NCBI GenBank assembly: GCA_964354285.1
Contig: CAYGYR010000001.1
Coordinates: forward strand, 518,424 to 582,423
DNA: 64,000 nt
DNA from: an uncultured Methanosarcinales archaeon
GTDB taxonomy: Archaea > Nanobdellota > Nanobdellia > Woesearchaeales > ARS49
Direction: 5' to 3'
Each line of letters starts with the position of its first letter. The stretch's first letter is position 1. Positions 1,672 to 57,516 of this stretch are shown piece by piece. The notes beneath the pieces were generated by a model. That model saw nothing but the letters and a program-made list of their open reading frames with translations. It was not told the origin of the DNA and ran no database searches. Both the position numbers and the translations under genes were made by a program.

Positions 1672-1672
1672 A

Positions 1673-17594: not shown

Positions 17595-17595
17595 T

Positions 17596-17618: not shown

Positions 17619-17738
17619 AAATAATAGGTATCTACTTAGAGTAAAACATTCTAGGAAAGAAAAAAACGACCTAGAGTAAAATAAAAAAAAATCCGTGCCG
17701 GATTTTTAAACTTCAAAATCTTTTTGAAGTAAAATAAA

Positions 17739-24591: not shown

Positions 24592-24620
24592 TTGACAAAT
24601 TTTAAACAAAATTGACAAAT
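24592..24620 (+). promoter_or_regulatory. Direct repeats TTGACAAAT spaced 20 bp apart upstream of a TATA-like box
   Basis: TTGACAAAT at 24592 and 24612; ACAAATT-type half-sites; TTTTAAATA at about -25 from the ATG at 24662. Confidence 0.4.
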
Positions 24621-24661: not shown

Positions 24662-25294
24662 ATGGATAAAACAAACATCAACCAGGAGATTTGGCACATC
24701 TTGCAGAGTGATTTAGCAATACAGAAAGACCTGCAAAGAAAACTTCTGAACACACGAGCACTGGCAAAATACATAATAACAAAATATCCGCTAAGGGCAT
24801 CACTTGATTCTGTAATATCCGCAATAAGAAGATTCCAGAGCCAGGAAAAATTTGCAGAAGAAGAAAAAGCCCTTCTCGGATGCTTCAAAGGGGCTGTTGT
24901 CTCGACAAAAAACAATGTGGTGTGCATAACATTGCAGATGAGGCCATCTGAGTTTTTTAAAAAATTCAGCGCACTGAACAACCCATCACTAAGGATAACC
25001 ACAGGAAGCAGGGAAGTCAAGGTGATAGTTGAACAGCCTTACCTGGCTGACATAAAGAAACTGTTTGAAAAAGAGCAGTTCAGGCAGATTCAAGAAAAAT
25101 TAAGCGAGATAAATGTAAAACTCAGCACAAACTCACTTGAGATAAAAGGAGTTCTTGCAAGAATAGCCAGCGAGATAGCGCTCGCAGACATAAACCTTTA
25201 TGAGATGCTTGTCTGCCCCCCAGAGTTCTTGATTTACATCAAAGAAAAAGACATTGTAAAAGCACATGAAGCAATATTGAAGCTGTGCGAGTAG
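24662..25294 (+). CDS. Hypothetical protein, possible wHTH regulator
   Basis: ORF; N-terminal helical region. Confidence 0.35.
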   Translation: MDKTNINQEIWHILQSDLAIQKDLQRKLLNTRALAKYIITKYPLRASLDSVISAIRRFQSQEKFAEEEKALLGCFKGAVVSTKNNVVCITLQMRPSEFFKKFSALNNPSLRITTGSREVKVIVEQPYLADIKKLFEKEQFRQIQEKLSEINVKLSTNSLEIKGVLARIASEIALADINLYEMLVCPPEFLIYIKEKDIVKAHEAILKLCE

Positions 25295-30334: not shown

Positions 30335-30744
30335 GCAATGAAATAATGCAAGATGTCGGAAAAATTCTGCTCTCTGGATTAATTATCTTAACTGTTTTGG
30401 GCCTTTTTAGGGATGCAGGAATAGCTGGCTTTAGTGTTGCAGACCTTCCTTTGCCAGAATATACTGGCCCAGAAAGATTCTTTGTGGAGAATAACAAGCT
30501 GCTTACACTTGACCTGAACTATTATTTTTCAGGTGATGAACTTGTTTATACAGCTGACATGCCCAAAGGACTGGATGTTGTGATAAGAAAAAACATCCTT
30601 TCAATAATTCCCACTGAGGCAGGAGAGCACGAGATTACAGTTTATGTCTCAAATACTCAGCAAATACTCAAACAGAAACTGCATATCAAAGTCACAGAAA
30701 AACTACAGCCTAATACTGGCGGCTGTGGATGTAAGCGCAGTTAA
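30331..30744 (+). CDS. Membrane-anchored hypothetical protein
   Basis: N-terminal TM; 4-nt overlap with the upstream gene. Confidence 0.35.
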   Translation: MSNEIMQDVGKILLSGLIILTVLGLFRDAGIAGFSVADLPLPEYTGPERFFVENNKLLTLDLNYYFSGDELVYTADMPKGLDVVIRKNILSIIPTEAGEHEITVYVSNTQQILKQKLHIKVTEKLQPNTGGCGCKRS

Positions 30745-32007
30745 AGCACCAGCAATATCTGCGCGCAATGCCTCAGTATCTATTTTCTCAAGCTCTTTCT
30801 GCAAGTCAGCAATCTTTCTTTCCGTTATTTTTTTTGCAGAATCATCTTTGTCTAGCTTTTCTTTTTTCTCCTTAACCAGTATTGTCACATTTGACGTTTC
30901 TATTGCCTTTGCAGTCTCGCCTTCCTCTTTTTTTAGCTGGCCGTATTCTGTGAGGAAGCTTCCAAGATACTCTTTTGTGAAAAGCTGAAGCACCTCAAGA
31001 GTCTTATCTTTTTTTCGGTCCTTTAAGTCAACCCTATTATTCCTTATCAATGCCTGCATGTCAGAAAATGCTTTTATAATCCCAAGATGCAGGTCCTGCA
31101 CCAATGCATCGAGCGGAGAATCAATGTATCTCTGCAGTATCTCCTTATGCTTGTATGTTATTTTCTCAAACTTTCTCATCGCAGCATCTATCGCAGAAAA
31201 AGAATTCATCATTCTTGCCCGCGCCTGCTCTATCTTTGCTTTTGTCTCCAATTGCATTTTCTCAAGCTCTCTCAGAGTTTTATCTTTCTTAAGCAGCGCA
31301 AGCTCGCCGGAAAGCGTTTCCATCTCTTTTTCCAATCCATCTTTTTCTTGTTTCAACAATTCTGCCTCTTCCAAAAGCTTTTTCTTCAGATTTACCTTGA
31401 ATTCGAGATCTTTTATCCTTGCTTTTGTGCTTTCTAAAGAATGAATTGACTTTGACATTATTTCCTGCTGCACGCTGTTCAGCTCTTTTTCAATCACAGC
31501 AATGTTAGAGCTTACCTGCCTTGACTCATCTGAAAAAAATTCCTGGAGTATCTGGTACGGCCTTGCAATGCCCTGCGCAAGATTCCTGAGCTCTTCCTGC
31601 ATTGCAGAATAGAAAGAGCCGTAATCCCGTATGTCACTTGGAAAATGAATGCTGTTAAGGAAAAAACCTATTCTTTTAATGTATGTCTCCCTGTTGCCCT
31701 GCATGAAATGCTTTGCCCTTTCAGGGATGCTTTGGTTTCTCAGCTGCGCCTGCTCAAGAATCTCGAGATTGTGCCTCGTCTCCTCTATCTCATGCGCCAC
31801 TGCTTGTTTTGCAGCAGCCAGCCTGCTATTCAGCTCTGCCACAACAGGCCCGGTTTTCTCATCAAGCCACTTCTCAAGCTGCTGAAGCTCAATCTCTTCC
31901 TTTGGCAGATCTGGCTCTTTCTTCCTGAACATAGATTTGAATATTTCCCACATGCTCCTGCTTAAAAGAGGAGAATTTATATAGTTTTGCCTCATAAAAG
32001 CAGCCAT
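30703..32007 (-). CDS. Long coiled-coil protein (about 434 aa)
   Basis: Heptad-rich; start set at MAAFMRQ because the longer ORF extension is antisense to Rpp21. Confidence 0.45.
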   Translation of the reverse strand: MAAFMRQNYINSPLLSRSMWEIFKSMFRKKEPDLPKEEIELQQLEKWLDEKTGPVVAELNSRLAAAKQAVAHEIEETRHNLEILEQAQLRNQSIPERAKHFMQGNRETYIKRIGFFLNSIHFPSDIRDYGSFYSAMQEELRNLAQGIARPYQILQEFFSDESRQVSSNIAVIEKELNSVQQEIMSKSIHSLESTKARIKDLEFKVNLKKKLLEEAELLKQEKDGLEKEMETLSGELALLKKDKTLRELEKMQLETKAKIEQARARMMNSFSAIDAAMRKFEKITYKHKEILQRYIDSPLDALVQDLHLGIIKAFSDMQALIRNNRVDLKDRKKDKTLEVLQLFTKEYLGSFLTEYGQLKKEEGETAKAIETSNVTILVKEKKEKLDKDDSAKKITERKIADLQKELEKIDTEALRADIAGALTALTSTAASIRL

Positions 32008-32332
32008 GGGCAAAAAAAAATTCTTTTCAAAAAAGCAGAAAGAAATGAAAGAAATTGCTGAAAAAAGAATCATATACCTGTTTGGGCAGGCAAAAGATAT
32101 TTTTAACAAAAGTCCAGAGCTTGCAAACAGGTACGCGTCTCTTGCAAAAAAAATCTCTATGAAATACAAGGTAAAAATCTCCAGAGAGCTGAAAAGGCGA
32201 TTCTGCAAGAACTGCTGCACGTATCTTGTTCCAGGAAGGACCTGCAGGGTGAGAACGCATAAGGGCAAAGTTGTTTATTACTGCTTTAACTGCAAAAAAT
32301 ACCTGAGATTTGTAATCCCTAAAAAAGTTTAA
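32006..32332 (+). CDS. rnp4: RNase P protein subunit Rpp21/Rpr2
   Basis: Basic N-terminus; CKNC...CFNC zinc ribbon typical of Rpr2. Confidence 0.7.
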   Translation: MGKKKFFSKKQKEMKEIAEKRIIYLFGQAKDIFNKSPELANRYASLAKKISMKYKVKISRELKRRFCKNCCTYLVPGRTCRVRTHKGKVVYYCFNCKKYLRFVIPKKV

Positions 32333-34693: not shown

Positions 34694-36277
34694 TCAGTTC
34701 GCTCTTGCGAGCGAGAATTCTTCCTTCATCTTGTTTATCAAGTCTGCCCTGGCATACTGTGCAGCATTCTTTGTTGCATTGTAGAATGCGGTCTCATTTG
34801 ACCTTCCGTGGCACTTGATTACGCAAGTATTAAGGCCCAGCAAAGGAGCACCACCATACGACGATGAATCAAATGTTGCCTTGAGATCGTAGAACATGTC
34901 TTTAAGCAGGTATCCGCCAATTTTTCTTTTATTTTTTCTCACAAAAGAAGGGTCATGGTATATTCCCTTCTTTACAAACTGGAACAATTTATTGACCAGG
35001 GCCTCGCCTTCTTTGAGAATTATATTTCCAATAAAGCCATTTGTGACAAATATGTCAGCATATCCCCCAAAGAGAGCCTCAACTGACTGATTTTTTCTTG
35101 AATCTGGATTAAAAGATTTTTTTAATTCATCAAACAGCCCATTCAGCAACGCCTTGCCTAGCTTTCTCTTTGCATATTGTATTATCCCATTTGAATCCTG
35201 CACGCCTTTTTCAACATGCTGAATTAATTTATCAACAAGTGTTTCCTTCATGCTGAGAATCATTCTTGCACTAAAGCTGTCTGTGATGTAAATATCTGCA
35301 TGCCCGTTAAATAGAGGGTATGGCTCTGCATTTTTCTTGAAGTTTTTTCCAAACTCTGCCTCAAATAACTTATATGCCTCAAGCTCTAGAGCCCTGCCTT
35401 TATTTGACTCCTCACCTATATTGACAAGAGCTATTGTGGGCTCTTTGATTCCTTTGGTTCTCTGCACCTGCTCAATCGCTTTTTTTGCAAGCTCAACCAG
35501 ATATCGTGGGGTGCAGACCGCATCTGCTTTTGGCTTTACAAAATATGCTTTGCCAGTATCATATGCAGGATCTTTTTCTGTGCCCGCACTTCTTATCCAA
35601 GGAATTGAAACTAAATTAAACTCAGCTTCAGCAGCATCCTGCATTTTGCCTGAGCTGCCTATAACCCCAAGATAATTCTGTAGAAAATGCCTTACAAGCT
35701 CCTTGTTTGCTTCTGCCTCTAAATCCATGTACTCCACTTTTTCATCCACATCAACCAGCGCAATTGTAGGCTCACTGACGCCAAGAACATGCTGGACATA
35801 AAGCCTTGCCATGATTGCAAAATCACGCAGATTCTGCGGGGTATAACTCATATTTGCGCCAGCATCAAGCAGATATGAAAATCCAGTAGCGTACTTACCA
35901 TTTACCATTTTAACCCAGGGAAGCGGAATTATGATTGGCGGATTCTCAAACTCTTCTGTGCACATGCCTATCCCCTTCTTGACAGAAGCCATAACAAGCT
36001 TTGTGTTGTTTGCAGTGACTATTGCATCTATTTCCTGCTTATTGCTTAACTCAGTAAGAACCCTCAGTGCTGCGCCTTTGCTTTTTTTGGTGGTGTTTGC
36101 CGCAATTAATCTTTCTAGAGAATGCTTGGCGCAGAATTCTTTAATTTCAGCAGCATCTCCAGGAATGACGATTTCAATGCATTTGTCTTCCTCGAGAGCT
36201 CTCTTTGCACCATAGAGCGCGGGATGTCCTTCAACCTCACTTGTCGGATCAAGCCCTATTCTAACATAATTTGTCAT
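34694..36277 (-). CDS. plsX: PlsX-like phosphate acyltransferase family protein with an internally duplicated C-terminal module
   Basis: TANNTKLVMA (GNTG-like), AGANM; the EPTIALV(D/N)...EE and ADI(Y/F)(I/V)T(D/N)(S/G)F motifs each occur twice; ends in YGGAPLLGL. Confidence 0.55.
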   Translation of the reverse strand: MTNYVRIGLDPTSEVEGHPALYGAKRALEEDKCIEIVIPGDAAEIKEFCAKHSLERLIAANTTKKSKGAALRVLTELSNKQEIDAIVTANNTKLVMASVKKGIGMCTEEFENPPIIIPLPWVKMVNGKYATGFSYLLDAGANMSYTPQNLRDFAIMARLYVQHVLGVSEPTIALVDVDEKVEYMDLEAEANKELVRHFLQNYLGVIGSSGKMQDAAEAEFNLVSIPWIRSAGTEKDPAYDTGKAYFVKPKADAVCTPRYLVELAKKAIEQVQRTKGIKEPTIALVNIGEESNKGRALELEAYKLFEAEFGKNFKKNAEPYPLFNGHADIYITDSFSARMILSMKETLVDKLIQHVEKGVQDSNGIIQYAKRKLGKALLNGLFDELKKSFNPDSRKNQSVEALFGGYADIFVTNGFIGNIILKEGEALVNKLFQFVKKGIYHDPSFVRKNKRKIGGYLLKDMFYDLKATFDSSSYGGAPLLGLNTCVIKCHGRSNETAFYNATKNAAQYARADLINKMKEEFSLARAN

Positions 36278-40367: not shown

Positions 40368-40460
40368 GCCCCTGTAGTATAGCTTGGATAGTACGCGAGG
40401 TTGCGGACAGCGTGTAAATGCAAAAACCTTGAAACTGGGGTTCAAATCCCCGCAGGGGCG
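40368..40460 (+). tRNA. tRNA-Arg (GCG) with an anticodon-loop intron of about 19 nt
   Basis: Acceptor GCCCCTG/CAGGGGC; anticodon stem CGAGG/CCTTG around TTGCGG plus intron; T-loop TTCAAAT. Confidence 0.7.
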
Positions 40461-40521
40461 TGTTTTAAAATCCTTAAACTGTGTCACAATATTTAAAAAT
40501 AAGTTCTTACGAAGCAAGCTC

Positions 40522-41799
40522 ATGCAGGAATACTATCTGTCCCGAAATGCCAACAGCGAGGAATCAATAAAACTTTTTCTTAGAGATATTGGCAAACAAG
40601 AGATTCTCAAAAAAGAAGAAGAATTCGCATTGGCAGAGCAGATGGCGTACTACAAGAAAGAGATAATCCTAAACTTGTGCAGGCTTCCTGACTACAAAAA
40701 CTGCCTTGAAGACAGGTTAAAAGAATACAATGCTTATTGCGGGCAGATTGGAAAAAAAGAGCAGATTGAGAAGATACTCAATGACAAAACAAAAGGTGTT
40801 GAAACACGCCTCAAGTCTTGCATGGAACAAGTTGACAGAATAAACGCACGCTTAGCCTATCTTGCAAAAAATAGCAGCAGCGTTGGTGTGAGAAAGATAA
40901 CTAGCCAATTAAGAATCCATAAGCATAATCTGATAAATGATCTTGATTTTCCTCGCGACTTCATCTACAGGCTTATATTTGACCTGAAAGAAGCAAATCT
41001 TGGCAGGAGGTATGATGCAATAACAGAGAGAGTATACAAGCTCAATGAGTGTTATAATTCTGCTTTTGAGCTGTTTTCCAACTCAAATCTTAGGCTTGTT
41101 GTGAGTATTGCGAAAAAATATAGGTTCAGGGGATTTACTTTCGGAGACCTTATCAACGAGGGATGCTTTGGCCTGATAAGAGCCATAAACAAGTATGATT
41201 ACAAAAGGGGATATAAGTTCTCCACATACGCAACTTGGTGGATAAGGCAGGCAATACTTCGCGCTCTGGCTGACAAGGCAAATCTCAGAAGGATTCCAAT
41301 CCACATACTTGAGAAAAGAAACCTCATCAGTAAAGCAAGAGCTTGCCTCAGGGAAAAATCAGATGAAACACCCACTGTTGATCAGCTGGCAGAAGAAGCG
41401 AATATGTCTATTGCGGAAGCAGAGAACATTGAGAATGTATTTTCACGCAAGACAATCTCTCTTGATAAGCCTGCTAAAGATGACGATGATGATTACGGCA
41501 GCATGGTTGACTTTATGGTTGATGATAAATCTGCAAATCCTCCAAAGGAAGCAATAAGAAATGATATGAAGATAACAGTGCATAAAGTTCTCAATAATGC
41601 ACTTGACAGCAGGGAGCAAGAGATAATAAAACTAAGATACGGCATACCTGACGGCGCAAAATACACCCTTGAGGAAGTAGGCAGGATTTTCAGGGTCTCA
41701 AAGGAAAGAATCAGGCAGATAGAAGCAAAAGCAATGAGCAAACTGCAGCATCCTAGAAGCCCAAAGCTAAAAGCTTTTCTTGAGAAAGTAGGCAGATGA
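40522..41799 (+). CDS. Bacterial-type sigma-70 family RNA polymerase sigma factor (regions 1.2, 2, 3 and 4 present)
   Basis: [11 protein letters not shown] (region 1.2); [13 protein letters not shown]...[37 protein letters not shown] (region 2); [26 protein letters not shown] (region 4 HTH). The larger ORF start overlaps the tRNA, so the start is set at M47. Confidence 0.8.
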
Positions 41800-41879
41800 A
41801 AGACTGGGACCAGGCAATAACTTTATAAGCTACTAACTATATACTCTATCATATATTATGAACAAGGAGTGATGATACT

Positions 41880-42887
41880 ATGAAAAAAACAATACTGTTT
41901 TTAGCTATTTTCTTTATGTTCTTGACTGCGTGTGTTGTACAGCAACAGCAGCCAGCCAAAGAAACTGAAGAACAGATTACAACTGAAGGCGAGACTGCTC
42001 CTGAAGAGGAGATAGACGTTGAGGCAGTCCAACAGGATGAAAATGTAGTTGAGATTATTGAAGAAGAGCCGCAGGAAGAGCTGTCTGCAGAAAGAAAATA
42101 TTTTCTTGAGTTTGTAAACAAAGCGCCAACAGCATATGTCTTCAAGCAAGACCCTGGGGGAGCAAGATACGTGACTGTGTCTGGAAACAAAAGAAGCATA
42201 GGAGAATATAGGACTGATTATGATAACATATACTGGGGCACAGATACAAAAGAAGTGCTGCTTTACACAAGAGAGATTCCAGAATCCTGGTGGTGTCAGA
42301 GGAAAAACCTGACCTGCGGCATAAATCAGAGTCTAGGCGCAGGAAAATACCTGCCTGCATTCTTTAAGTTCATAGTATCAGGAGACAAGGAACAAGACGA
42401 GAGCCTCGTTCCAGATGAGTTGCAGAAATGGTTCTGGGTGTTCACTGCGGCACATGGGTCAAAGATTGTCAAGACAGACTGGTTTGGAGAGGTATACACC
42501 TTTGGCCCGATTGATTGGCTGATGGCATATAAAGATGCAGAGCCAGTAAAAATTGACCACAAAAAAATAACCGTGAAAGTACTAGGAAAAGAAGTGACTG
42601 TTGACACATCTATCTATTTCCAGGACGATGATGGGAAGACAGTGATTTTCAGAATGGACCCAAAACTCAATGTTCCTATGGTTGTCGAGAAGCTCAACAG
42701 CAATGGAACACAGGTTGAGTATTACAAGTATTTGCTTGAAACTCAATACCGAAGAAACACTTTTGAAAGTGTGCCTATACAAGATGTAGTCACGCCACCT
42801 TCAAACCACATCATAGTGACTGTAAGCGACATGAATGCATATGATGAGTATAAGGAAGGTTCAAGAGAAAATGCAGAGCGTTATTGA
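41880..42887 (+). CDS. Lipoprotein with a bacterial-style lipobox (LTAC) and acidic linker
   Basis: Signal peptide MKKTILFLAIFFMFLTAC followed by a D/E-rich region. Confidence 0.45.
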   Translation: MKKTILFLAIFFMFLTACVVQQQQPAKETEEQITTEGETAPEEEIDVEAVQQDENVVEIIEEEPQEELSAERKYFLEFVNKAPTAYVFKQDPGGARYVTVSGNKRSIGEYRTDYDNIYWGTDTKEVLLYTREIPESWWCQRKNLTCGINQSLGAGKYLPAFFKFIVSGDKEQDESLVPDELQKWFWVFTAAHGSKIVKTDWFGEVYTFGPIDWLMAYKDAEPVKIDHKKITVKVLGKEVTVDTSIYFQDDDGKTVIFRMDPKLNVPMVVEKLNSNGTQVEYYKYLLETQYRRNTFESVPIQDVVTPPSNHIIVTVSDMNAYDEYKEGSRENAERY

Positions 42888-42908
42888 TTTCTTTTAAATT
42901 TTTATTTT

Positions 42909-44678
42909 TTATTTCCCTCTTCCCCTCTGCTTCTCATAAAGAACTTTAACTTCTTCTGTTGTGCTTATCTCATCAGGGCTTCTGTCTTCCCTTAATCTTA
43001 CAAATCTTGGGAATCTTAATGCAAATCCTGAGCCATATGTCTGGCTTGCCTGAATCTCCTCATAATTAACTTCTATGATTACTGTTGGCTTGACTCTTAT
43101 TTCCTTGCCTTCTTCCTTGATAATGAACGGCTTAAGCATCTCTGTAAGCTGGTTAAAGCTGACACCTTCCTCATCTTTCTCTTTTATTCCTGTTCCAACC
43201 CTTCCGATTTCAACAAGCTCTCCTGTCTCTGGGTTCCTTACTGCAATTATGAAACTGCTTAACCACGCGCTTCTCTTTCCCTCACCCCACTCTGCACCAA
43301 CAATAGCAACATCAAGTGTCTCCATAACAGGCTTTAGCTTAACTCCGTAGCCGACTCTTGAGCCTGGCTTGTAAATTCCCTGAAGATTCTTAACCATCGC
43401 CCCCTCATTGCCTGCAGCAAGGGATTTCTTGTAAAACGCTTCTGCTGCGCTGTCATCTTCTGTGATCAACTGCACAGCTGGCTTTATCTTCAGGTCAGCA
43501 GGATTTGCAATGATTCTCTCAACAATCTTCCTTCTTTCAGAAAAAGGCTTCTTCAAAAGGCACTCGCCATCATAATAAACAACATCAAATATGTTAAGCT
43601 CGACAGGAAATTTCTTTGACATCTCTGCAATATCATACTTTCTTTTTATTCTTTGAGAGATATTCTGGAATGCAGTGTATTTTTTTGTATTTGTGTCATA
43701 GCCAACTGCCTCGCAGTCAATAATGAAAGAATCGCCTTTGACATGCCCCTGAACAAAAGAAACAACATCAGGGAACTGCTTTGTGACCTCATCAAGGCGC
43801 CTTGTGAAAAGCCAAATCTTGTCCTTATTCTTGTGAATCTGAAGCCTGAACCCGTCATACTTGTACTCAAAAGCAGCAGGCCTACCGACTGCCTCAAAAG
43901 CCTCTTTCATATCCTTTACTTTCTGGTAGAGCATCACTTTTATCGGCTTTCCTGGCTCAATGCTAATGCTGCCAAGGCCCTGAAGCCCATTTTCTTTTGC
44001 AGCTTTAGCAACAACTGCAAAATCATTAGCGACATCATACGCTTCCTGGACAGCTCCAATATACTGGTTGTATTTTTCCCTGTCTTCAACCACAAAATCA
44101 TTTTCTTTGCTTTCATACTTGAAGCCAAGCTCCTGGCTGAAAAACGCCCAGGCTATTGCATCCCTGACAGTGCCCTCACCAAGGCCAACCCTCAAATCCT
44201 CAAGAACAGTCCTGATGATATACTTGGCCTCAATCGGCTTTGCGCTCGTGATCAATTCTGCAATCAGCTTTACTTTTTTGTCAACTGTTCCAGCACCCTC
44301 CATTGATGCCTGCTTCTGTATGTTCTCAAAAACCTTGTCTGTTGTAAGCTCCTGAGCGAAAAGTGTTGCCTGGCTTTTCTTTGACATTATGTTTTCTGCA
44401 CAAAGGCCAAGGTCTCCTGTCTTTTTCCATTCCTTTTCTATCTCTGCCAGGTCAATTCCAGAAGCTGTATTGATCGCCTTAAGCAACAAGCGCGATGCCA
44501 TCCCTATTTTTCTTTCATCCCACTGGGGAAAAACAAGCCCTCTGACAAGAAGGATTATCCTGTCAAGCTCTTTCACAGGAATCTTTTTCAAAAACTCTGA
44601 CATGCAATATGTTTTCTCAAGCCTTTTAGAAGTTCTTTCAAGCTGCTCGTAAACCCCCACTAACTCAAGATATTTCAT
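42909..44678 (-). CDS. lig: ATP-dependent DNA ligase
   Basis: Active-site KYDGFR motif and an OB domain; archaeal/eukaryal-type length. Confidence 0.9.
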   Translation of the reverse strand: MKYLELVGVYEQLERTSKRLEKTYCMSEFLKKIPVKELDRIILLVRGLVFPQWDERKIGMASRLLLKAINTASGIDLAEIEKEWKKTGDLGLCAENIMSKKSQATLFAQELTTDKVFENIQKQASMEGAGTVDKKVKLIAELITSAKPIEAKYIIRTVLEDLRVGLGEGTVRDAIAWAFFSQELGFKYESKENDFVVEDREKYNQYIGAVQEAYDVANDFAVVAKAAKENGLQGLGSISIEPGKPIKVMLYQKVKDMKEAFEAVGRPAAFEYKYDGFRLQIHKNKDKIWLFTRRLDEVTKQFPDVVSFVQGHVKGDSFIIDCEAVGYDTNTKKYTAFQNISQRIKRKYDIAEMSKKFPVELNIFDVVYYDGECLLKKPFSERRKIVERIIANPADLKIKPAVQLITEDDSAAEAFYKKSLAAGNEGAMVKNLQGIYKPGSRVGYGVKLKPVMETLDVAIVGAEWGEGKRSAWLSSFIIAVRNPETGELVEIGRVGTGIKEKDEEGVSFNQLTEMLKPFIIKEEGKEIRVKPTVIIEVNYEEIQASQTYGSGFALRFPRFVRLREDRSPDEISTTEEVKVLYEKQRGRGK

Positions 44679-48966: not shown

Positions 48967-49338
48967 TTGAGCTTTATGGCACTCAGCAAGAAGCACAAAT
49001 TTGTTCTTTATGCGCTTTACCAGTATCTTACTGAAGCAAATAAATTATTTACCCATCAGTCTCTTGAGATGTCTGTATCAAAGAGTGTCTTTATCGGAGC
49101 GCTGAAGAAGACAAAGATAGCTGACAAAAGCGAAAGGGCACTCTACAGGAACCTCGAGATTCTTGAAAAGAAGAAGCTGCTGACGTATGAGAACAAATTC
49201 CTGAAGCCGACTGAGAAAGGACTGAAACTGTTTGAGGCAATGAATCAGGAAATATTTCCATTCATACATGCGGTTGATGTAATAAAGAAAGATGCGCTGT
49301 CGATGAGCAAGAAAGCGCAGACTTATTTCAAGCAATAA
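48967..49338 (+). CDS. Hypothetical protein
   Basis: ORF only. Confidence 0.35.
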   Translation: MSFMALSKKHKFVLYALYQYLTEANKLFTHQSLEMSVSKSVFIGALKKTKIADKSERALYRNLEILEKKKLLTYENKFLKPTEKGLKLFEAMNQEIFPFIHAVDVIKKDALSMSKKAQTYFKQ

Positions 49339-49413
49339 TTATAGTAAACTTTAAAAGCCCTGGTTCTTAACTTTGTAATATGCTTGGCTATTGATTGCAA
49401 GCAGTTGATTAAC

Positions 49414-49486
49414 AGCCCCGTCGTCTAGTGGTTAAGGATAGCGGACTTTGGATCCGTTGACAGCGGTTCGAATCCGCTCGGGGCTA
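49414..49486 (+). tRNA. tRNA-Gln (TTG)
   Basis: Acceptor AGCCCCG/CGGGGCT, anticodon loop CTTTGGA, T-arm AGCGG-TTCGAAT-CCGCT. Confidence 0.8.
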
Positions 49487-49574
49487 TACTATTATTTTCT
49501 TAATAGCAATTTTAGTGGAATGAAACCGGCCTTTAGAATGTTTTATAAGTTTAAAGTCTTTATTTTAAAGAAAT

Positions 49575-50129
49575 ATGCAATTAGGAAAAACATTATGTGT
49601 AACCAATAGAAAAGATTGGCGTTCATGGCTTGCTAAAAATCATAATAAAGAAAAAGAAATTTGGCTAATTTATTATAGAAAATCATCTGGCAAGCCAAGG
49701 ATACCATACAATGATGCTGTTGAAGAAGCACTCTGTTATGGATGGATAGACAGCATTATCAAGTCTATTGATGAGGAAAAATTCGCCCAAAGATTTACGC
49801 CGCGAAGACCAAAAAGCGTGCTTTCAGAGCTGAATAAGGAACGTATCCATAGACTGATTGCAGATAAGAGTATGACTTCTAAAGGCCTTAATGCAGTCAG
49901 CCATGCATTCGATAAAAACCAGAAATTTACAATTGCCCCCTATATTTTGAAAAATCTTCAACAAGACCAGGAAGTTTGGAAAAACTTCCAGAACTTTCCT
50001 CATTCATACAAACGCATTCGTATCGGTTGGATAGCATCAGCTAGAACTCGCCCGAAACTTTTTAGTCAGAGATTAAAATATTTTCTAAAGATGACTGCAA
50101 AGAATAAAAAATATGGGATGATGCAGTAA
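49575..50129 (+). CDS. YdeI/OmpD-associated family protein (DUF1801-like)
   Basis: WRSWLAKNH...CYGWIDS...FTPRRPKS family pattern. Confidence 0.55.
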   Translation: MQLGKTLCVTNRKDWRSWLAKNHNKEKEIWLIYYRKSSGKPRIPYNDAVEEALCYGWIDSIIKSIDEEKFAQRFTPRRPKSVLSELNKERIHRLIADKSMTSKGLNAVSHAFDKNQKFTIAPYILKNLQQDQEVWKNFQNFPHSYKRIRIGWIASARTRPKLFSQRLKYFLKMTAKNKKYGMMQ

Positions 50130-50486
50130 TAAACTGACAGCAGTTATTTATTGAATTCTCTAAATATTGATTCCAGACTTATAATTCCCTCAGGTAAAGA
50201 AGGAACTCTCCTAGAGAAGGATTAGTTCCCCAAAAAGGGTCTCTGATTTTGCAGAGGTTTGGGCAGGGCTAATCTTTTTTTAAACCGCATCTTATCCAAG
50301 ATAATCTGCAGTATTTACGCCAGACTTCTAATATCTTTTCGAACAGATTTTACGAAATCTTTATAAAGGTTTATAGGCTATCGCATATAGCTTAAATTAG
50401 GAAAATACAAATATACGACTATAAATAATTTGGTTGATCAAATAAATTATGTTTGTTTTCTTCCGGATATTTAGAGATGAATTAAT

Positions 50487-51020
50487 ATGGCAAAATTATC
50501 ATTAAAAGGATATGAATTTGAAGATGTTATTGTTAAAGACTCTTTTAACAGAAGAGAGTTAGCCTTTGCAAATAACATAATACGCACTTTAAAACAGATT
50601 GGTGTTGATGAAGATCAAATAGAGGTTAGTCATGAAAATCTGCCCTTGACAAAAAAACCAGCTCGTGTTTCATGGTATCACAAAGAAAGGCACCATTATT
50701 ATAGTTATTCAGGAAAAAGATTTGTAGACAACCTGTTTGTAGTTAATAAAATTATTAGCTTAAGCGTACTTGATGTCATTGAAGCCAGAAAAAGCTATGA
50801 AGATTTTTCTCTAGATTTTTTAGAAGAAACAAATATAGAGGATAAAAGGAAAGAGGCCAGAGAATATTTTGGTCTTAAAGAGAATTTTACGATGGCGGAT
50901 GTTAATAATGCATATAAGCAGCTAGCCAAGGATTTACATCCAGACATGCCTAATGGGGATGGAGAGAAGTTTAAGAAATTAAATGAAGCCCACAAAATTC
51001 TTAAGAGAGAACTAACTTAA
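50487..51020 (+). CDS. J-domain protein with an uncharacterised N-terminal domain
   Basis: C-terminal J domain with YKQLAKDLHPDM (HPD motif). Confidence 0.6.
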   Translation: MAKLSLKGYEFEDVIVKDSFNRRELAFANNIIRTLKQIGVDEDQIEVSHENLPLTKKPARVSWYHKERHHYYSYSGKRFVDNLFVVNKIISLSVLDVIEARKSYEDFSLDFLEETNIEDKRKEAREYFGLKENFTMADVNNAYKQLAKDLHPDMPNGDGEKFKKLNEAHKILKRELT

Positions 51021-51074
51021 TTTTAATTATAAAAAACAACAAAGTTTATTAATTAAGTTATCTTTTTTTTAAAA

Positions 51075-51647
51075 ATGGATTTTAAAAACAATTGCAGGAA
51101 GTGCCCAAAAAACACGCATTGCTGCATTTTTAAAAACTCAGGATTTGTTTTTGTAGGCATCAAAGACGCAAGAACAATCAAGAAGCAAACTAAAAAAGAA
51201 TACTGCTTCTTTTTGGATTATTCACCAATTTCAAAAAAAATTGTTAATTGCTTAAAACACGATGATCCTGCTCTTGAAGGAAGATTAAGATATTCCCAAT
51301 TAGATAAAAATAACCGCATTCTCAGATTGAAAACCAAAAAAGACAGCAGATGCCTTTTCTTAAATAAGCATAACTTGTGTGATATCTATGGCATTAGGCC
51401 GAATATATGCAGAATATTCCCTTTTTGGGCAGTGAAGCTGATTAATGGCAAAATTAAGATTATACCTCACGATGTTCAATCTAAGTGCAAAATTATAACA
51501 GCATTAATTAAAAAACAAAGAGATAATATTGATGAAATTTTAAGTAGAAAAGAAAAAATCGAAATCAAGAAAACAGTTAGAAAGATTAAAGATGAGAATG
51601 TCTTCTATAAGAACAATATTCTGAAATTTATAAAAGATATAACCTGA
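51075..51647 (+). CDS. YkgJ-family Cys-cluster protein (paralog of 47486..47998)
   Basis: CRKCPKNTHCC and CRIFPF motifs. Confidence 0.45.
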   Translation: MDFKNNCRKCPKNTHCCIFKNSGFVFVGIKDARTIKKQTKKEYCFFLDYSPISKKIVNCLKHDDPALEGRLRYSQLDKNNRILRLKTKKDSRCLFLNKHNLCDIYGIRPNICRIFPFWAVKLINGKIKIIPHDVQSKCKIITALIKKQRDNIDEILSRKEKIEIKKTVRKIKDENVFYKNNILKFIKDIT

Positions 51648-51670
51648 CATAATGATGTTTCAAACCACAT

Positions 51671-53593
51671 TTACAAAATATCAACTAATTTTATGCACAT
51701 CTTTATCGCATCGCTGCAGTTGTCCATCTTTTTTGAAAGCTTATGGTCATTTGTTGCTTTTTTTACCTGCGAAACCTTGTCTAAAAGAGTCCTGTAAAAT
51801 CTCAATAAATCGCCTTCTGGCAATTGCGTGTTCTCAATCACCTTAAAGATATCCTCGCCATGAAAACAAGGATCGATTAATGCAGTCATTTTAATGATAT
51901 TATCAAAACGCTTTTCAGCCTTGAGATAATCATTTCCATTCAGTTTTGATTTTAATTTTTCTATTGATTTATCAGGATATACCTGTTTGAACTCCTCTTC
52001 TTCCCTGGATTCAAAACATATGCATGCTATCAGCAGCAGCAAATGGTATTCATCAAGATCCTCATAGAATTTGCCAAAGAATATCTCACCCATTAAAAAT
52101 TCATCACAATATATTTTTGATGCAAAAATCCCTTTTTCAGTGAGGCAATCATCTTTTAAATATCCTAGTTTAGTCAGCTTTTTCTTCAAATTATCAAAGG
52201 CATTATGGCTTTTCATATTCCTTCTCTTATCAAAGTTCTTGCCGTATCTCTGGTAAGAATCAAAGCTTTCGCATAATATCTCCGCAATTTCAGGAACAGT
52301 GTGCCTTTGGATCATATTTAATACTGTGTTAGGGGAAATCTTGAACTGCGAGTTTATCGGTTCAGTGTCTTTTGCGATCATCTTTTTAATCTTGTTATAC
52401 TCAAAATCATTCCTGTTTATCATAGGTATAACATATCCTATCTTGTCAATCCCCCTGCGCCCTGCGCGCCCCGCAATCTGGAAAAACTCTTTCGATGAAA
52501 TATATCTGAAATTAAATCCATCAAATTTCCGTAAAGTCTCAAAACAAACAGTCTTTGCAGGCATGTTAATCCCCACAGCAAATGTTTCAGTGGTATACAA
52601 AACTTTAATCAGGCCAAGAGAGAATAATTCCTCGACAATGTCTTTTAAAATCGGGATAAGGCCTGCATGATGAAATCCTATGCCCTTTGACAGTGTTTTT
52701 TTAAGGAGCATTGTTGATTTGAGAGTATTTATTTCCGGGGGCGATTCACTCAGCCTTTCTCTTACCATCTTGATTATTTCCAAATTAGTCTCAAATACGC
52801 CGCAAGTATAAAGCTCATCAGCCATCTTCTCGCATTTTGATCTTGAGAAACTGAAAAACAAGCATGGCAGTTTGTCATAAATATCCTTGATAAGCTCAAT
52901 ATGTGAAGCAGTTTTGATTCTTTTATGCCAATGCCTTGATTTTCCCATAACACTGTCATAATCAGGTATCTCTGCAATGTCTTTAATTTCATTAAGCGAG
53001 GATATGCCTAGCTCAAAATCATAAAAATTTGTTTTTAATGGCACGGGCCGTTCAGCATGCTCGATTACTTGAACCTTGTGATTTTTTATAACACTGATCC
53101 AGTCAGCAAATTCTCTTGCGTTGGGGATAGTTGCAGAAAGGCACAAAAATCTGGTGCTTGACTTTGAAAATATTATAGATTCTTCCCAAACATACCCTCT
53201 TTCAATATCACTAATAAAATGAATCTCATCAAAAATCACGTAAGAGATGTTCTTTATTATGTCATCATCTGACATAAGCATATTTCTATAAATCTCAGTA
53301 GTCATTATAAGAATAGTTGCACCAGGATTTTTCACAGTATCTCCTGTCAATAATCCTATATTCTCTTCACCGTAATCCTTGCAAAAATCTTTGTATTTTT
53401 GGTTTGAAAGCGCCTTGATTGGCGCAGTGTAGATAACTTTTATGCCCTTTTTGATATCGCGGCTGATAATATAATCAGCAATCAAGGTTTTTCCAGAACC
53501 TGTCGGAGCGCTCACTATCACAGAATAGTTTTTTTCAATTGCAATAATGGCTTCTTCCTGAAACTTGTCAAGCTGCAATCCCTTAAAAATCAT
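51671..53593 (-). CDS. Ski2-like DExH-box helicase
   Basis: Walker A APTGSGKT, DEIH box, HHAGL motif. Confidence 0.85.
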   Translation of the reverse strand: MIFKGLQLDKFQEEAIIAIEKNYSVIVSAPTGSGKTLIADYIISRDIKKGIKVIYTAPIKALSNQKYKDFCKDYGEENIGLLTGDTVKNPGATILIMTTEIYRNMLMSDDDIIKNISYVIFDEIHFISDIERGYVWEESIIFSKSSTRFLCLSATIPNAREFADWISVIKNHKVQVIEHAERPVPLKTNFYDFELGISSLNEIKDIAEIPDYDSVMGKSRHWHKRIKTASHIELIKDIYDKLPCLFFSFSRSKCEKMADELYTCGVFETNLEIIKMVRERLSESPPEINTLKSTMLLKKTLSKGIGFHHAGLIPILKDIVEELFSLGLIKVLYTTETFAVGINMPAKTVCFETLRKFDGFNFRYISSKEFFQIAGRAGRRGIDKIGYVIPMINRNDFEYNKIKKMIAKDTEPINSQFKISPNTVLNMIQRHTVPEIAEILCESFDSYQRYGKNFDKRRNMKSHNAFDNLKKKLTKLGYLKDDCLTEKGIFASKIYCDEFLMGEIFFGKFYEDLDEYHLLLLIACICFESREEEEFKQVYPDKSIEKLKSKLNGNDYLKAEKRFDNIIKMTALIDPCFHGEDIFKVIENTQLPEGDLLRFYRTLLDKVSQVKKATNDHKLSKKMDNCSDAIKMCIKLVDIL

Positions 53594-53688
53594 TTTAGAT
53601 TAAGAAAATGTACACCTATTTAAAGCTATCAAACAGATTTTCAGATCTGATGATTGCATAACAATTCTAGTTTTTTTAAGAATGAATA

Positions 53689-54918
53689 TTATCTTCTAAA
53701 ACTAGGCCTACGCCTGAATTTAGATTTAAAATCTCTGCGAAAAGGCCTTTGCTGTTTTGGTGCGGGCTTAGCAGCTGCGCCGACAGCATTTTTTGCATAT
53801 TCTGAATGGTATGCATGCTGCATAACCTCAATCTTTTGCCTAATCAGCTTTTCAATATCGCGAAGAAAATCTCTTTCATCTGCTGCGCAAAAAGAATACG
53901 CTGTGCCTTCTGCCCCTGCTCGTGCAGTCCTGCCTATCCTATGGACATAGCTTTCAGGCAGATTAGGAAGCTCAAAATTTATAACATGAGAAATACAGTC
54001 TATATCAATCCCGCGCGCAGCAATGTCTGTAGCAACCAACACTTGTATTTTTCCTGATTTGAAATCAGAAAGCGCCTGTGTTCGCGCATTTTGTGATTTA
54101 TTGCCATGAATTGCATCCACTTGGATGTTATTCTTGTGTAGATATAATGCAACTTTATTTGCACGATGCTTTGTGCGGGTAAACACTAAAACGCGGGTAA
54201 GATGCTCTTGCCTAAGAAGGTCCAATAACAGCTGTTCCTTAGCAGAAGAATCCACAAAAAAAACACATTGTTTTACACTTTCAACAAGGGTTGCTTGTGC
54301 TGCAGCCTCAACATGAACTGGATTTCTAAGAAGTGTTCCGGCAAGATCGCATATCTGAGGAGACATTGTTGCTGAGAAAAAAAGCGACTGGCGCTTTTGC
54401 GGCAATCTGGATATTATTTTTTTGATATCATTGATAAATCCCATATCAAGCATCCTATCAGCTTCATCTAAAACAAAAAATTCAATGTCTTTCAAGCTGA
54501 TTCGGCCTTGATTCATTAAATCAAGCAATCTGCCTGGTGTTGCGATAACAATATCAACACCCTTAGCCAGAGCATTAACCTGTGATCCTTGGCCAACACC
54601 CCCAAAAATGACAGTATGCTTAAATTTAAGAAACTCACCGTATGCAGAAAAACTTTCACCAATCTGTGCTGCAAGCTCCCTAGTTGGCGCAAGGACTAGT
54701 ACACGGATAGTTCGAGGATATTTTTCAGTCATCCTTTGAAGGATAGGCAATACAAATGCAGCAGTTTTGCCTGTTCCTGTTTGAGCTATGCCTATTAAAT
54801 CTCTCCCTTTCAAGAGATCAGGAATAGCTTTTGACTGTATTGGTGTCGGCTCAACATACCCCTGTTTGGCAATTGCCCTTTCAAGAGGCTCTATCAGATT
54901 TAGATTTTTAAATGACAT
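53689..54918 (-). CDS. DEAD-box ATP-dependent RNA helicase (RhlE-like) with a basic C-terminal tail
   Basis: Q-motif, [15 protein letters not shown] and HRIGRTAR motifs. Confidence 0.9.
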
Positions 54919-55010
54919 TTTAGTTTTTTATAAATTAATAAGCATGCTTTATGCTTTTAAAGGTATGGTTTATTAAGGTATGCAATTAAATTATTCAGTA
55001 TTCACATATA

Positions 55011-55034
55011 CAGCCCTGTGGTGTAGCAGCCAAG
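55011..55034 (+). other. Orphan duplicate of the tRNA-Gln(CTG) 5' segment
   Basis: AGCCCTGTGGTGTAGCAGCCAAGC versus the tRNA 5' end AGCCCTGTAGTGTAGTGGCCAA (20 of 22 identical); intron-like TATTCAG lies just upstream. Confidence 0.5.
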
Positions 55035-55073
55035 CAATAAATATTTATACCTTTTCTTCTATCCAATTCACTT

Positions 55074-55979
55074 GTGAGAGTCCAATTTAAATCATCAAAA
55101 CAAAGAGAAGTAATTCTGAATTTTAAACAGAATACTGATTTAACTTGGCAAGAACTTGCGGATTATTTGCATGTCAGAAAATCAGCATTATTAACCTGGT
55201 ATCATGAAAAAACTTTGTTGCCGTATGCAATATACATAATATTAGATAAAAAAGGACTGTTCAAAGAGCACATTCTAGAACTTAAAAATGATTGTTGGGG
55301 CCAAAGCAAAGGAGGAATTGCATCAACAGGAACAACAAAAGAAATATCCTTGCCAAGGCCTTGTACAGATTTAGCTGAATTAATCGGCATTGTATTAGGT
55401 GATGGTAATATCCATGAATACATTCAGACTAAAAAAATTAGGACATATATGCTAAGAATAGCGGGAGATTCGAGAAAAGACAGAAATTATCTTGTGACTT
55501 ATGTTGCTCCGCTCTGCGAATGCTTGTTTTCAATCCAGCCAAAATTTTTATATCAAAAACAGAGCAATGAGCTTTTTGTTATATTACACAGCAAGAAAAT
55601 CATTGAGTTCTTTAAAAAAATGGGCTTAACGCCAGGTAACAAAATCAAGAATCGATTAAATATTCCTGGCTGGGTACTCGAAGATGAGACATATCTTCGA
55701 GCATGTTTGCGTGGTTTAATAGATACAGACGGATCTATTTTCAGAATGTCAAATAGAGATCCGCAATTATTGAGAATTAATTTTAGAAATGTAAATAGCT
55801 CTTTGCTTGAAACTGTTTATAAGTCTTTTATTACGTTAGGATTTAAACCGGCACTTGCAAATAATGTAGTTTACTTATCTAGGAAGCAAGATATAGTAAA
55901 CTTTTTAAAAGGCATAGGTTTTTCTAATAGTAAGCATAGGTTAAGGCTTAAGAAGTTCAAAGGCAGCCCTGTAGTGTAG
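55074..55979 (+). CDS. Free-standing double-motif LAGLIDADG homing endonuclease with an N-terminal HTH-like region
   Basis: LIGIVLGDGNI and LRGLIDTDGSIF motifs; the last 15 nt overlap the tRNA-Gln 5' end. Confidence 0.8.
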   Translation: MRVQFKSSKQREVILNFKQNTDLTWQELADYLHVRKSALLTWYHEKTLLPYAIYIILDKKGLFKEHILELKNDCWGQSKGGIASTGTTKEISLPRPCTDLAELIGIVLGDGNIHEYIQTKKIRTYMLRIAGDSRKDRNYLVTYVAPLCECLFSIQPKFLYQKQSNELFVILHSKKIIEFFKKMGLTPGNKIKNRLNIPGWVLEDETYLRACLRGLIDTDGSIFRMSNRDPQLLRINFRNVNSSLLETVYKSFITLGFKPALANNVVYLSRKQDIVNFLKGIGFSNSKHRLRLKKFKGSPVV

Positions 55980-56072
55980 TGGCCAAATTTTTATTCAGCG
56001 TATGCTGAATAGAAAGGCTAGGCATGATTGGCTCTGGACCAATCGACGGCGGTTCGAATCCGCCCGGGGCTA
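55965..56072 (+). tRNA. tRNA-Gln (CTG) with a non-canonical intron of about 35 nt in the D-loop region
   Basis: Acceptor AGCCCTG/CGGGGCT, anticodon stem ATTGG/CCAAT with loop CTCTGGA, T-arm GGCGG-TTCGAAT-CCGCC; extra segment ATTTTTATTCAGCGTATGCTGAATAGAAAGGCT after GTGTAGTGGCCAA. Confidence 0.6.
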
Positions 56073-56134
56073 TTATTTATTCTGTATCAAAAGATGAGCA
56101 ACTTGGTAGAGATGTCCTGACAGGGATATTCTGA

Positions 56135-56629
56135 TTATCTTATGTCTGAGTGCTCAAGAAATTTAATGATTTTTTTAAATTTGTCTTCTAAAAATCTCAC
56201 ATCTGCTTTCTTTATCCTTTTTTTGTTGTATTTTAGAAAAAATCTTAGAACACCTGGTTCAATCCAGCACAATTTATCTGCTGTTTTTATTATTTTGCCT
56301 TCAACTGTTTTTGGTTTTTTGGAAGAACCATGATTTAATATACAATCTTCCAGCTTAGAATCAACTCTAAATCCGCTCTTTTTCAAAATATTAACACTAT
56401 GAAATGCATGATCTTCAGAAGAGATAGTTCTTCCTATATCATGCAAATTAGCTGCAATCACTAATGTTTTTCTGTCAACCTTTCTTTTTTCAGCTAGAAT
56501 AAGCGCAGTTTCTCTTACTTGTTTCATATGCGCAAGAAAGATCTCCTTGTCCTTAGCAGATTTAACCTTGCCAAATAACTGCTTAGCAAATTGTTCAGAA
56601 CTTTTAATAGTTAAAGTTAATTTTTTCAT
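56135..56629 (-). CDS. HD-domain phosphohydrolase
   Basis: H...HD...H...H...D pattern (ANLHDIGR). Confidence 0.6.
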   Translation of the reverse strand: MKKLTLTIKSSEQFAKQLFGKVKSAKDKEIFLAHMKQVRETALILAEKRKVDRKTLVIAANLHDIGRTISSEDHAFHSVNILKKSGFRVDSKLEDCILNHGSSKKPKTVEGKIIKTADKLCWIEPGVLRFFLKYNKKRIKKADVRFLEDKFKKIIKFLEHSDIR

Positions 56630-56755
56630 AATATTAAATAACTTAACTCAATATTTAAACATTTCCAAAGTTTCTCATCAAATGATACAAAAATCATAGA
56701 TATCTGTGAGGGGCTATCGATTCTTTTCTTCCAGCCCTAAATTCAACTCTTAGAA

Positions 56756-56962
56756 TCATCCCAAAAGCTCCTTATATCCTTCCAGGTTTTTTAGTCCATA
56801 TGCGCTGATTATTTTTTCCCTGCCTTTTGGCTCTTTTAGAAGTCTTTCAATAAATTTCTGTGATTTGGCAAATTGCGCATTAATGAATTCTGTGTGAATC
56901 TTTTTCCATTTATCAGGGTTTTCTTTCATAAATCTTATCCAGCGGTCAATTTCTTCGCTCAT
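56756..56962 (-). CDS. Small helical hypothetical protein, coupled to the upstream nucleotidyltransferase-like gene
   Basis: 68-aa ORF with a 4-nt overlap. Confidence 0.3.
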   Translation of the reverse strand: MSEEIDRWIRFMKENPDKWKKIHTEFINAQFAKSQKFIERLLKEPKGREKIISAYGLKNLEGYKELLG

Positions 56963-57516
56963 GATAATCTTAGCCTTCTTATCATTTTTTTAATATGATT
57001 GATGTTATCTTCACTGATTTGCTCGGCATATATCTTTCTTAAATGCTCTGCATCTTTTAAATCCTTCTCTGATTTCAATAGTTCTTCCTTAAATGCTATA
57101 TTCATGTCTATGCTGCTGAACCAGACATCAAGGCCGGTCAAAGGCAGCTTCGTTCTTGTCCTGATTTGAAACTCATCCAGATCATCTTTTACAAACTTGA
57201 TTTCCATCTCTGGCAAAGGCTGGTTTCTTAGCGTGTAGCGCACTGCTATTTTATCTTTTAAGTAATCGAATATCTCTTCTTCTGAATCAGACTGCATGCA
57301 CGTAAATCCTCCTTTTATTAAGTCCTGGTGCAGCCTCTTGAATCTTTCAAAATCGAGTTTTTCAATAATCATATCAATGTCTTCTGTTGCCCTGCTTCTT
57401 CCAGAGCTTATTGCAACAAATCCTGAAACAATTATGTACTTGCAGTGCTTATCTATTATAGAACAAAACTTAATACAAAAATCATCCAATATATTTTTAT
57501 CATCTATTGCGCGCAT
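56959..57516 (-). CDS. Minimal nucleotidyltransferase-fold protein (putative)
   Basis: GFVAISSGRSRATEDIDMII resembles the GS...D.D motif of pol-beta-type nucleotidyltransferases. Confidence 0.4.
   Translation of the reverse strand: MRAIDDKNILDDFCIKFCSIIDKHCKYIIVSGFVAISSGRSRATEDIDMIIEKLDFERFKRLHQDLIKGGFTCMQSDSEEEIFDYLKDKIAVRYTLRNQPLPEMEIKFVKDDLDEFQIRTRTKLPLTGLDVWFSSIDMNIAFKEELLKSEKDLKDAEHLRKIYAEQISEDNINHIKKMIRRLRLS

Follow-up and report, generated by a model that had tools for sequence, protein, structure and literature searches.

Sigma factors in bacteria and the proteins TBP and TFB in archaea are textbook markers of how transcription starts in the two domains. The question addressed here is what a sigma-70 family gene is doing in an archaeal chromosome, as found in a 64,000-nucleotide (nt) stretch of DNA that is called the window in the following (positions 518,424 to 582,423, forward strand, of contig CAYGYR010000001.1, assembly GCA_964354285.1) and that is listed under an uncultured Methanosarcinales archaeon and placed by GTDB in the Woesearchaeales. 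The open reading frame (ORF) encodes a real RpoD-like sigma-70 of the bacterial type. On balance, and with modest confidence, we regard it as a domesticated sigma-70, ultimately of bacterial origin, in a Woesearchaeota (DPANN) chromosome. That this protein may now serve as a sequence-specific DNA-binding transcription regulator, and no longer as a canonical sigma that partners a bacterial core, is proposed more tentatively, with a likelihood that we would place a shade under even.

The phenomenon as such is already known. Sigma-70 genes of DPANN archaea were described by Castelle et al. (2021, Front Microbiol, PMC8204110) as protein family fam00359, 'particularly prevalent in Woesearchaeota'; in that study mis-binning was ruled out, anti-sigma factors were not found and no mechanism was assigned. 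The window gene fits this group as a sigma-70 protein amid archaeal genes in the Woesearchaeota lineage. With the shared features of a sigma-70 on archaeal, mainly Woesearchaeota contigs and the lack of an anti-sigma partner, no essential difference was seen, and the gene is evidently a member. Added here are the residue-level divergence pattern, the predicted archaeal promoter, estimates of selection and the history of the locus.

A bacterial-type sigma-70 factor in an archaeal chromosome

The sigma ORF matched four Pfam families above their gathering thresholds: region 2 (PF04542, Sigma70_r2) with 70 bits against 24, the helix-turn-helix of region 4 (PF04545, Sigma70_r4) with 59.4 against 24.1, region 3 (PF04539, Sigma70_r3) with 30 against 25.3 and region 1.2 (PF00140, Sigma70_r1_2) with 26.2 against 22. 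The original prediction, made from the letters of the sequence, had called the factor complete and had asked for profile support. This support was obtained for regions 1.2 to 4, and completeness holds for these regions and not for region 1.1 (PF03979), which gave no Pfam match in the ORF; just 14 residues precede region 1.2, unlike in nearly all bacterial relatives matched, where PF03979 is present. An insert of about 125 residues separates regions 1.2 and 2. Among the NCBIfam models, those for RpoD ranked at the top, but every score remained far under the equivalog cut-off (NF004208, 309 against 555; TIGR02393, a C-terminal model, 268 against 354; NF006666, 254 against 572), as did that of the rpoS_proteo model TIGR02394 (219 against 379). 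A sequence search of the PDB aligned residues 185–421 with many bacterial primary sigmas at E values of about 1e-55 to 1e-63. The AlphaFold2 model reached a mean predicted local distance difference test (pLDDT) score of 78.4 and was low only at the region 3.2 linker; its top Foldseek matches were the primary sigmas of E. coli, Vibrio and Thermus within holoenzymes. A longer, TTG-initiated frame from 40384 was rejected as the start because it runs over the tRNA gene upstream, and the ATGCAG start is kept in all sigma relatives aligned.

The surroundings of the gene are archaeal, as had been stated originally: thermosome, Spt5, Elp3 and ATP-dependent DNA ligase genes were found in the window, together with a Hel308-type helicase, an XPD helicase, two FtsZ genes and intron-bearing tRNAs. 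The thermosome shares a 90% identity cluster with a protein labelled by NCBI as 'Candidatus Woesearchaeota archaeon'. Nine of ten window proteins looked up were present in the collection, all on one 585,399-bp NCBI contig, where the exact sigma protein is found as well. Contigs from ERR3804373, SRR12594517, JGI 3300032156 and ERZ27247851, whose nucleotide identity to the window is 95–100%, show the same order of genes around sigma. As the sigma junctions are identical or near-identical in these four independently assembled data sets, the chimeric contig considered in the original prediction is excluded. The host is a Woesearchaeote, and the sigma gene lies in a genuine archaeal chromosome.

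Family relationships, functional residues and selection

Relatives of the sigma protein were sought exhaustively among 1.84 billion representatives. Only few full-length ones were found, namely P0002 (70% identity), P0124 (42%), P0127 (37%), P0135 (38%) and P0148 (38%), while bacterial RpoD ranked below the family and aligned just over the C-terminal 60%, with an identity of about 50–53%. Eight family representatives share as hallmarks the lack of region 1.1, an insert motif LCxLPxY..C, a residue other than asparagine at position 409 and L440 (arginine in P0002); this combination was seen in no other protein among the 415 collected. Neighbour-joining on the C-terminal part grouped the family as a clade with a bootstrap of 68/100, and tree distances within it (0.90) were larger than those among bacterial RpoD (0.57). 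An archaeal or Woesearchaeota-labelled context was found for four of the eight representatives (P0124, P0127, P0135 and P0148): for P0148 the annotation reads RpoD/SigA from a Woesearchaeota archaeon, the 5-kb contig of P0124 has a TFIIB-family gene about 2.4 kb downstream, and P0127 and P0148 have a neighbourhood in common (DEAD helicase, sigma, HD-domain gene, M24 peptidase, GyrB) which is unlike the window locus. The other members lie on short or uninformative contigs. The proteins form a small sigma family that is monophyletic and apparently archaeal. The top-scoring bacterial sequences were RpoD proteins of Planctomycetota/Phycisphaerae, an affinity that may be taken as a weak hint at the donor.

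Further searches did not enlarge the family. The family-specific N-terminal alignment gave an irrelevant Clostridia match only when genome contigs were scanned, and zero matches in a profile search. The full-length family profile was swamped by bacterial RpoD and yielded the Woesearchaeota name for P0148, and IMG/VR viral contigs, when scanned, gave generic C-terminal matches whose identity did not exceed 48%, none of them a family member. A conserved operon partner was considered and rejected: neighbours vary between family members and not one of them recurs throughout, so that sigma lacks a conserved partner gene. The 152-residue membrane protein encoded upstream of sigma was likewise dismissed as an anti-sigma factor, as it has an N-terminal transmembrane helix and no family match and is separated from sigma by the tRNA gene.

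Two observations were made at the loci of other family members. GGDEF genes and HD genes (HD_5, HD-GYP-like), which represent bacterial-type cyclic-di-GMP signalling domains, lie near the sigma genes of P0127, P0148 and P0135 (L009–L011, L013–L016), that is, in putative Woesearchaeota and beside another bacterial-type regulator. In genome GCA_964387435.1, which carries P0127, an intein splits the gyrase B gene (L009:9943-12155).

Functional residues are given in E. coli numbering, which according to the alignment to solved primary sigmas corresponds to the query residue + 194 in region 2 and + 190 in region 4. The window sigma keeps the seven aromatic melting residues F419 (as Y), Y421, Y425, F427, Y430, W433 and W434, further Q437, R441 and R451, H455 and E458 for the extended −10, and E585, R586, R588 and Q589 for the −35 element. 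The near-canonical −10 and −35 recognition helices of the original prediction are thus borne out by this alignment, bar the substitutions of T440, the −12 reader, by leucine and of R584 by lysine. At positions 406, 409 and 440 the window sigma carries N, C and L.

A comparison of the eight family members with 128 bacterial representatives placed these changes in a wider frame. All seven aromatic melting residues, D403, E407, Q437, R441 and the −35 residues are retained in the family. Q406, present in 98% of the bacterial proteins, is N, G or S in six of the eight members and Q in two; N409 (98%) is C in six and otherwise S or F; T440 (91%) is L in seven and R in one (P0002). Replacements are also frequent at R448 (97% in bacteria; N, S, K or T in 6/8, R in 2/8), T449 (95%; L or P in 6/8, T in 2/8) and Q446 (86%; K, T, S or H in 7/8, Q in 1/8). 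D403, Q406, E407 and N409 are the region 2.2 residues which bind the clamp coiled-coil of beta-prime (bioRxiv 10.1101/2020.09.07.285775). The ratio of conservation in the family to that in bacteria was lowest in the region 3.2 finger (0.53), which is shortened in P0124, in regions 3.0–3.1 (0.58) and in region 2.2 (0.64), and higher in the DNA-contacting regions 2.3 (0.81), 4.2 (0.71) and 2.4 (0.69). Together, the ratios and the residue pattern show that the parts for DNA reading and melting have been retained and that the canonical polymerase-contact parts are relaxed or re-tuned.

Upstream of the sigma gene lies a conserved block with a TATA box (Table 1). The block GTCAYAATRTTTAAAAAYAAG proved almost invariant in the alignment across loci whose sigma proteins are only 57–70% identical. 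In 25 of 58 window genes, with about 2.3 expected, a TTTAWAW box begins between −42 and −24 relative to the start codon, a pattern characteristic of archaeal TATA promoters and leaderless mRNAs. Because of the box at −30 and the near-invariant block, the sigma gene is predicted to be driven by an archaeal TATA-type promoter; the position of the box implies a leaderless or short-leader mRNA. The gene also resembles its host in composition, with a GC content of 0.401 (window mean 0.402) and a codon usage that is the third most typical of 25 long window genes. Pairwise ratios of non-synonymous to synonymous substitution rates (dN/dS) of sigma were 0.19–0.34 at all divergence levels, while those of neighbouring genes were 0.05–0.20; these values indicate that sigma is under purifying selection, weaker than that on its neighbours. 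Long residence had already been argued from composition in the original prediction, and the host-like GC content and codon usage together with purifying selection mark the gene as old, selected and long resident, and as probably functional.

Table 1. Positions of the sigma-70 gene, its parts and further features in the 64,000-nt window
Feature	Position	Strand	Remarks
Sigma-70 family gene	40522..41799	+	425 residues; Pfam, NCBIfam, PDB sequence search, AlphaFold2 model
Sigma region 1.2	~40564-40644	+	
Insert of sigma	~40684-41076	+	Family-specific, non-conserved
Sigma region 2	41080-41280	+	
Sigma region 3	41311-41544	+	
Sigma region 4	41599-41751	+	
Conserved promoter block (predicted)	40483..40503	+	GTCACAATATTTAAAAATAAG; between tRNA-Arg and sigma ATG
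Archaeal-type TATA box (predicted)	40492-40499	+	TTTAAAAA; starts exactly 30 nt before ATG
tRNA-Arg (anticodon GCG)	40368..40460	+	93 nt; ARAGORN; Rfam tRNA 46.4 bits
Intron of tRNA-Arg	~40407-40425	+	~19 nt; one nt 3' of anticodon, canonical 37/38 site
Lipobox lipoprotein	41880..42887	+	335 residues; begins MKKTILFLAIFFMFLTAC; LTAC at ~41922-41933
Variable slot	40461..42908		From tRNA-Arg to 3' end of convergent DNA ligase gene
Thermosome	4796-6427	-	
SecE, then Spt5	17178-18257		Spt5 with NGN and KOW domains
Elp3	20570-22252		
ATP-dependent DNA ligase	42909-44678	-	Convergent; 3' end borders the slot

Possible modes of action

In the reading that we prefer, regions 2.3/2.4 and 4.2 of the domesticated sigma would read −10-like and −35-like DNA. 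The absence of region 1.1, which is the autoinhibitory part of sigma-70, would ease free DNA binding, and the polymerase contacts, i.e. the region 3.2 finger and region 2.2 with its substitutions at Q406 and N409, would be relaxed or re-tuned. The protein might then act without polymerase, or its domain 2 might dock on the clamp coiled-coil of the archaeal polymerase. A precedent for the former is sigma-A of Bacillus subtilis, which alone, with no core enzyme, binds −10 DNA (PMC3035472). We favour a regulator because region 1.1 is absent, because of this precedent for core-free binding and because the polymerase-contact segments are the most altered ones.

Several points weigh against this proposal. 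No target DNA motif was found in the window; matches to sigma-70-type promoters in the window were weak and mostly intragenic (54, with 40.3 ± 5.1 expected), no −35-like hexamer was seen at a fixed distance from the window TATA boxes, and TTGACAAAT was not enriched in the window (41 found, 42 expected). The strict retention of W433, W434, Y430 and region 2.1 is best explained by work with a polymerase and not by binding to duplex DNA. As to the family, the bootstrap of 68/100 for its monophyly is moderate and neighbour-joining is a simple tree method, and the expression of sigma is predicted. Moreover, our own data comprise 64 kb of the genome, and for the remainder we follow the literature in assuming that it encodes neither a bacterial-type core enzyme nor an anti-sigma factor.

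As a separate observation, two exact copies of TTGACAAAT, the only exact ones in the window, lie 20 nt apart at 24592–24620, just upstream of the TATA box of an unannotated gene (24662–25294), and form a candidate operator.

The alternative that survives best, although we consider it unlikely, is a hybrid mode of initiation, in which sigma would use a re-tuned region 2.2 to dock on the Rpo1N clamp coiled-coil of the archaeal RNA polymerase, a site also used by TFE and Spt5, would read or melt −10-like DNA and would guide or support open-complex formation at some of the promoters. The functional analogues would then be archaeal TFE and TFB: like TFE, sigma domain 2 would engage the clamp coiled-coil together with the non-template strand, and the sigma finger would take the place of the TFB reader, with no sequence or fold relationship between these proteins and sigma. 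The clamp coiled-coil is universal among multisubunit polymerases, which speaks for such docking, as do the purifying selection on sigma and the retention of all seven aromatic melting residues, D403, E407 and most of region 2.1. The replacement of N409 by cysteine in six of the eight members is a change consistent across the family, and the family-consistent replacements at Q406 and N409 argue for re-tuning rather than decay. On the other side, constraint is weakest in the region 3.2 finger, which has been shortened in P0124 and which, with sigma and TFB bound together, would clash with the TFB reader; no sigma-type promoters were seen in the 64-kb window. Hybrid initiation is also in line with the archaeal polymerase being the only one expected in the cell (PMC8204110).

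Locus history and comparison with known systems

The tRNA-Arg gene beside sigma indeed contains an intron, as noted in the original prediction: ARAGORN, Rfam and the sequence itself agree on an insertion of about 19 nt in the anticodon loop. The gene is found directly upstream of sigma in all loci of the close clade (L001–L007). Sigma-less syntenic relatives (L098, L100 and L128) were found by a metagenome scan with the ligase, to which their ligases are 72–76% identical. They keep the order FtsZ-nitroreductase-ligase-[slot]-orf152-PHP-methyltransferase-helicase, and their slots contain no sigma; in one of them the slot holds a 182-residue ORF, in the others an ASCH/DUF3850 gene and a membrane protein. 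The identity of orf152 to that of the window is 67% in the sigma-bearing L007 and 26–47% in the sigma-less loci, and sigma at the slot therefore tracks a sub-lineage.

The introns of the tRNA-Arg genes differ among these close relatives. The gene of L007 (L007:226-492), which was missed by ARAGORN and Rfam and became visible in the alignment, has the anticodon-loop intron and in addition a 44-nt insertion in the D-loop region; the orthologous tRNA-Arg(GCG) genes of L098 (~10620–10720, minus strand) and L128 (~1580–1680, minus strand) have the D-loop insertion only, and that of L100 (8308–8381, minus strand) has no intron. Such differences imply that introns of tRNA-Arg are gained and lost quickly.

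Downstream of sigma, the lipoprotein ORF matched no Pfam family; its signal peptide ends in the lipobox pattern [LVI][ASTVI][GAS]C, which makes it a predicted lipoprotein. Its bacterial style had been read as a marker of origin. This argument does not hold, since the window encodes a second predicted lipobox lipoprotein (59414–60166, plus strand, signal peptide ending in ...LLVALIFISGC) and lipobox proteins are thus normal in this genome. In L002, whose sigma is 92% identical, homology to the window breaks off at the stop codon of sigma and sets in again with the ligase, an unrelated 810-residue gene lying in between. The 3' end of the ligase comes within ~14 nt of sigma in L006 (sigma 70% identical), where the lipoprotein is missing, and in L005 (sigma 58%) a 284-residue ORF stands ahead of the lipoprotein homologue. 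As it is replaced, absent or displaced in these loci, the lipoprotein is exchangeable strain-variable cargo and forms no unit with sigma.

These findings bear on the view of sigma and lipoprotein as a mobile island that came from bacteria and was integrated recently at tRNA-Arg, which we regard as improbable. The idea of the tRNA as an integration site stands in part. Sigma lies immediately 3' of tRNA-Arg in a slot that is variable and that lacks sigma in L098, L100 and L128, and L098 (10509–10630, minus strand) has an exact 27-nt direct repeat TTCTCCGCAGGGGCGTATTCTATTACT, consisting of the tRNA-Arg 3' end and its flank, 111 nt apart; a similar repeat is present in L128 (around 1571–1700, minus strand), and the spacer is conserved between both loci. 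The repeat resembles an att-like scar or a short insertion next to the tRNA, so tRNA-Arg has been a target of insertion. In the window, however, no second copy of the tRNA 3' end was detected (at most 3 mismatches in 16) and none occurs among the repeats found; no integrase domain is present among the genes at 36.5–46.8 kb, and there is no compositional break around sigma, whose codon usage does not deviate either. The junction between tRNA and sigma and the promoter are kept down to 57% sigma identity, where synonymous divergence (dS) is saturated, and any insertion must therefore be ancient. Furthermore, the lipoprotein is unlinked to sigma, as the loci described above show, and the nearest relatives of sigma are members of its own family, none of them found in a bacterial context, and not bacterial sigmas. 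A recent insertion and a sigma-lipoprotein pair are thus largely refuted. Sigma is fixed in the close clade, syntenic loci of more distant relatives have no sigma in this slot, and the composition of the gene is inconspicuous; the most economical reading is the ancient arrival of an already 'archaeal' sigma gene in the slot, followed by fixation. Alternatively, sigma may have been lost from the sigma-less lineages.

With bacterial primary sigmas (RpoD/SigA, group 1) the window sigma shares the order of regions 1.2, insert, 2, 3 and 4, about 50–53% identity over the C-terminal 60%, the melting and −10/−35 residues and the fold. It differs by the lack of region 1.1, scores below cut-off, replacements at Q406, N409, T440 and R448, faster evolution and a host that uses TBP/TFB-type promoters. 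A canonical sigma for a bacterial core polymerase, encoded elsewhere in the genome or belonging to a bacterial host that receives the protein, would agree with the near-canonical DNA-recognition residues and with the view of Woesearchaeota as symbionts (PMC8204110). We nevertheless judge this role very improbable, since the core-binding residues with the highest conservation, Q406 and N409, have been exchanged, sigma has no signal peptide, its scores are well under every RpoD or RpoS equivalog cut-off, and these genomes were reported to contain no bacterial core enzyme but only TBP, TFB and TFE (PMC8204110). An assembly or binning artefact joining bacterial and archaeal DNA, for which the taxonomic oddity alone speaks, can be practically dismissed in view of the junctions reproduced in four other data sets and of the host-like composition and predicted archaeal promoter of the gene.

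Three other systems resemble the window sigma in part. Group 2 sigmas (RpoS, cyanobacterial SigB–E) are non-essential and, like it, have RpoD-like regions 1.2 to 4 and no region 1.1, but the window sigma is set apart by its rpoS score (219 against 379) and its 125-residue family-specific insert, and no bacterial core partner is known in its host. MzaA, the sigma-70 of the MZA anti-phage system, gave a generic C-terminal match (303 bits in NCBIfam; 193 bits over residues 171–422 in PADLOC); identity with it was rejected, as the cut-off is 800, no other Mza genes lie nearby and PADLOC found no defence matches in the neighbours. Finally, a 2025 study annotated 'rpoS' auxiliary genes in putative DPANN viruses (PMC12647753), likewise sigma-70 family genes linked to DPANN, whereas the window sigma lies amid housekeeping genes with no viral genes.

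Elsewhere in the window, GC content falls from ~0.41 to 0.31–0.37 at 49000–57500, where several ORFs are without family matches and a LAGLIDADG-like ORF lies at 55074–55979; this low-GC stretch may be a separate variable or foreign region. A 527-residue protein (34694–36277, minus strand) matched the bacterial-type PlsX/FA_synthesis family in three stretches; its counterpart in L002 (94–1182) has 362 residues only, so that the length is variable, and represents another bacterial-type gene in an archaeon. Two large ORFs, of 1014 residues (7992–11036, plus strand) and 521 residues (30703–32268, minus strand), matched no Pfam family at E <= 1e-4.

A sigma factor that has been under selection for long in archaea without a known bacterial polymerase means either a new use of the sigma fold or a compatibility across domains with the archaeal polymerase. 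The residue-level pattern, in which DNA-reading parts are kept and Q406, N409 and the finger changed or relaxed, provides concrete and testable hypotheses on this. Should the hybrid docking prove true, some Woesearchaeota would run a hybrid bacterial/archaeal mode of initiation or regulation.

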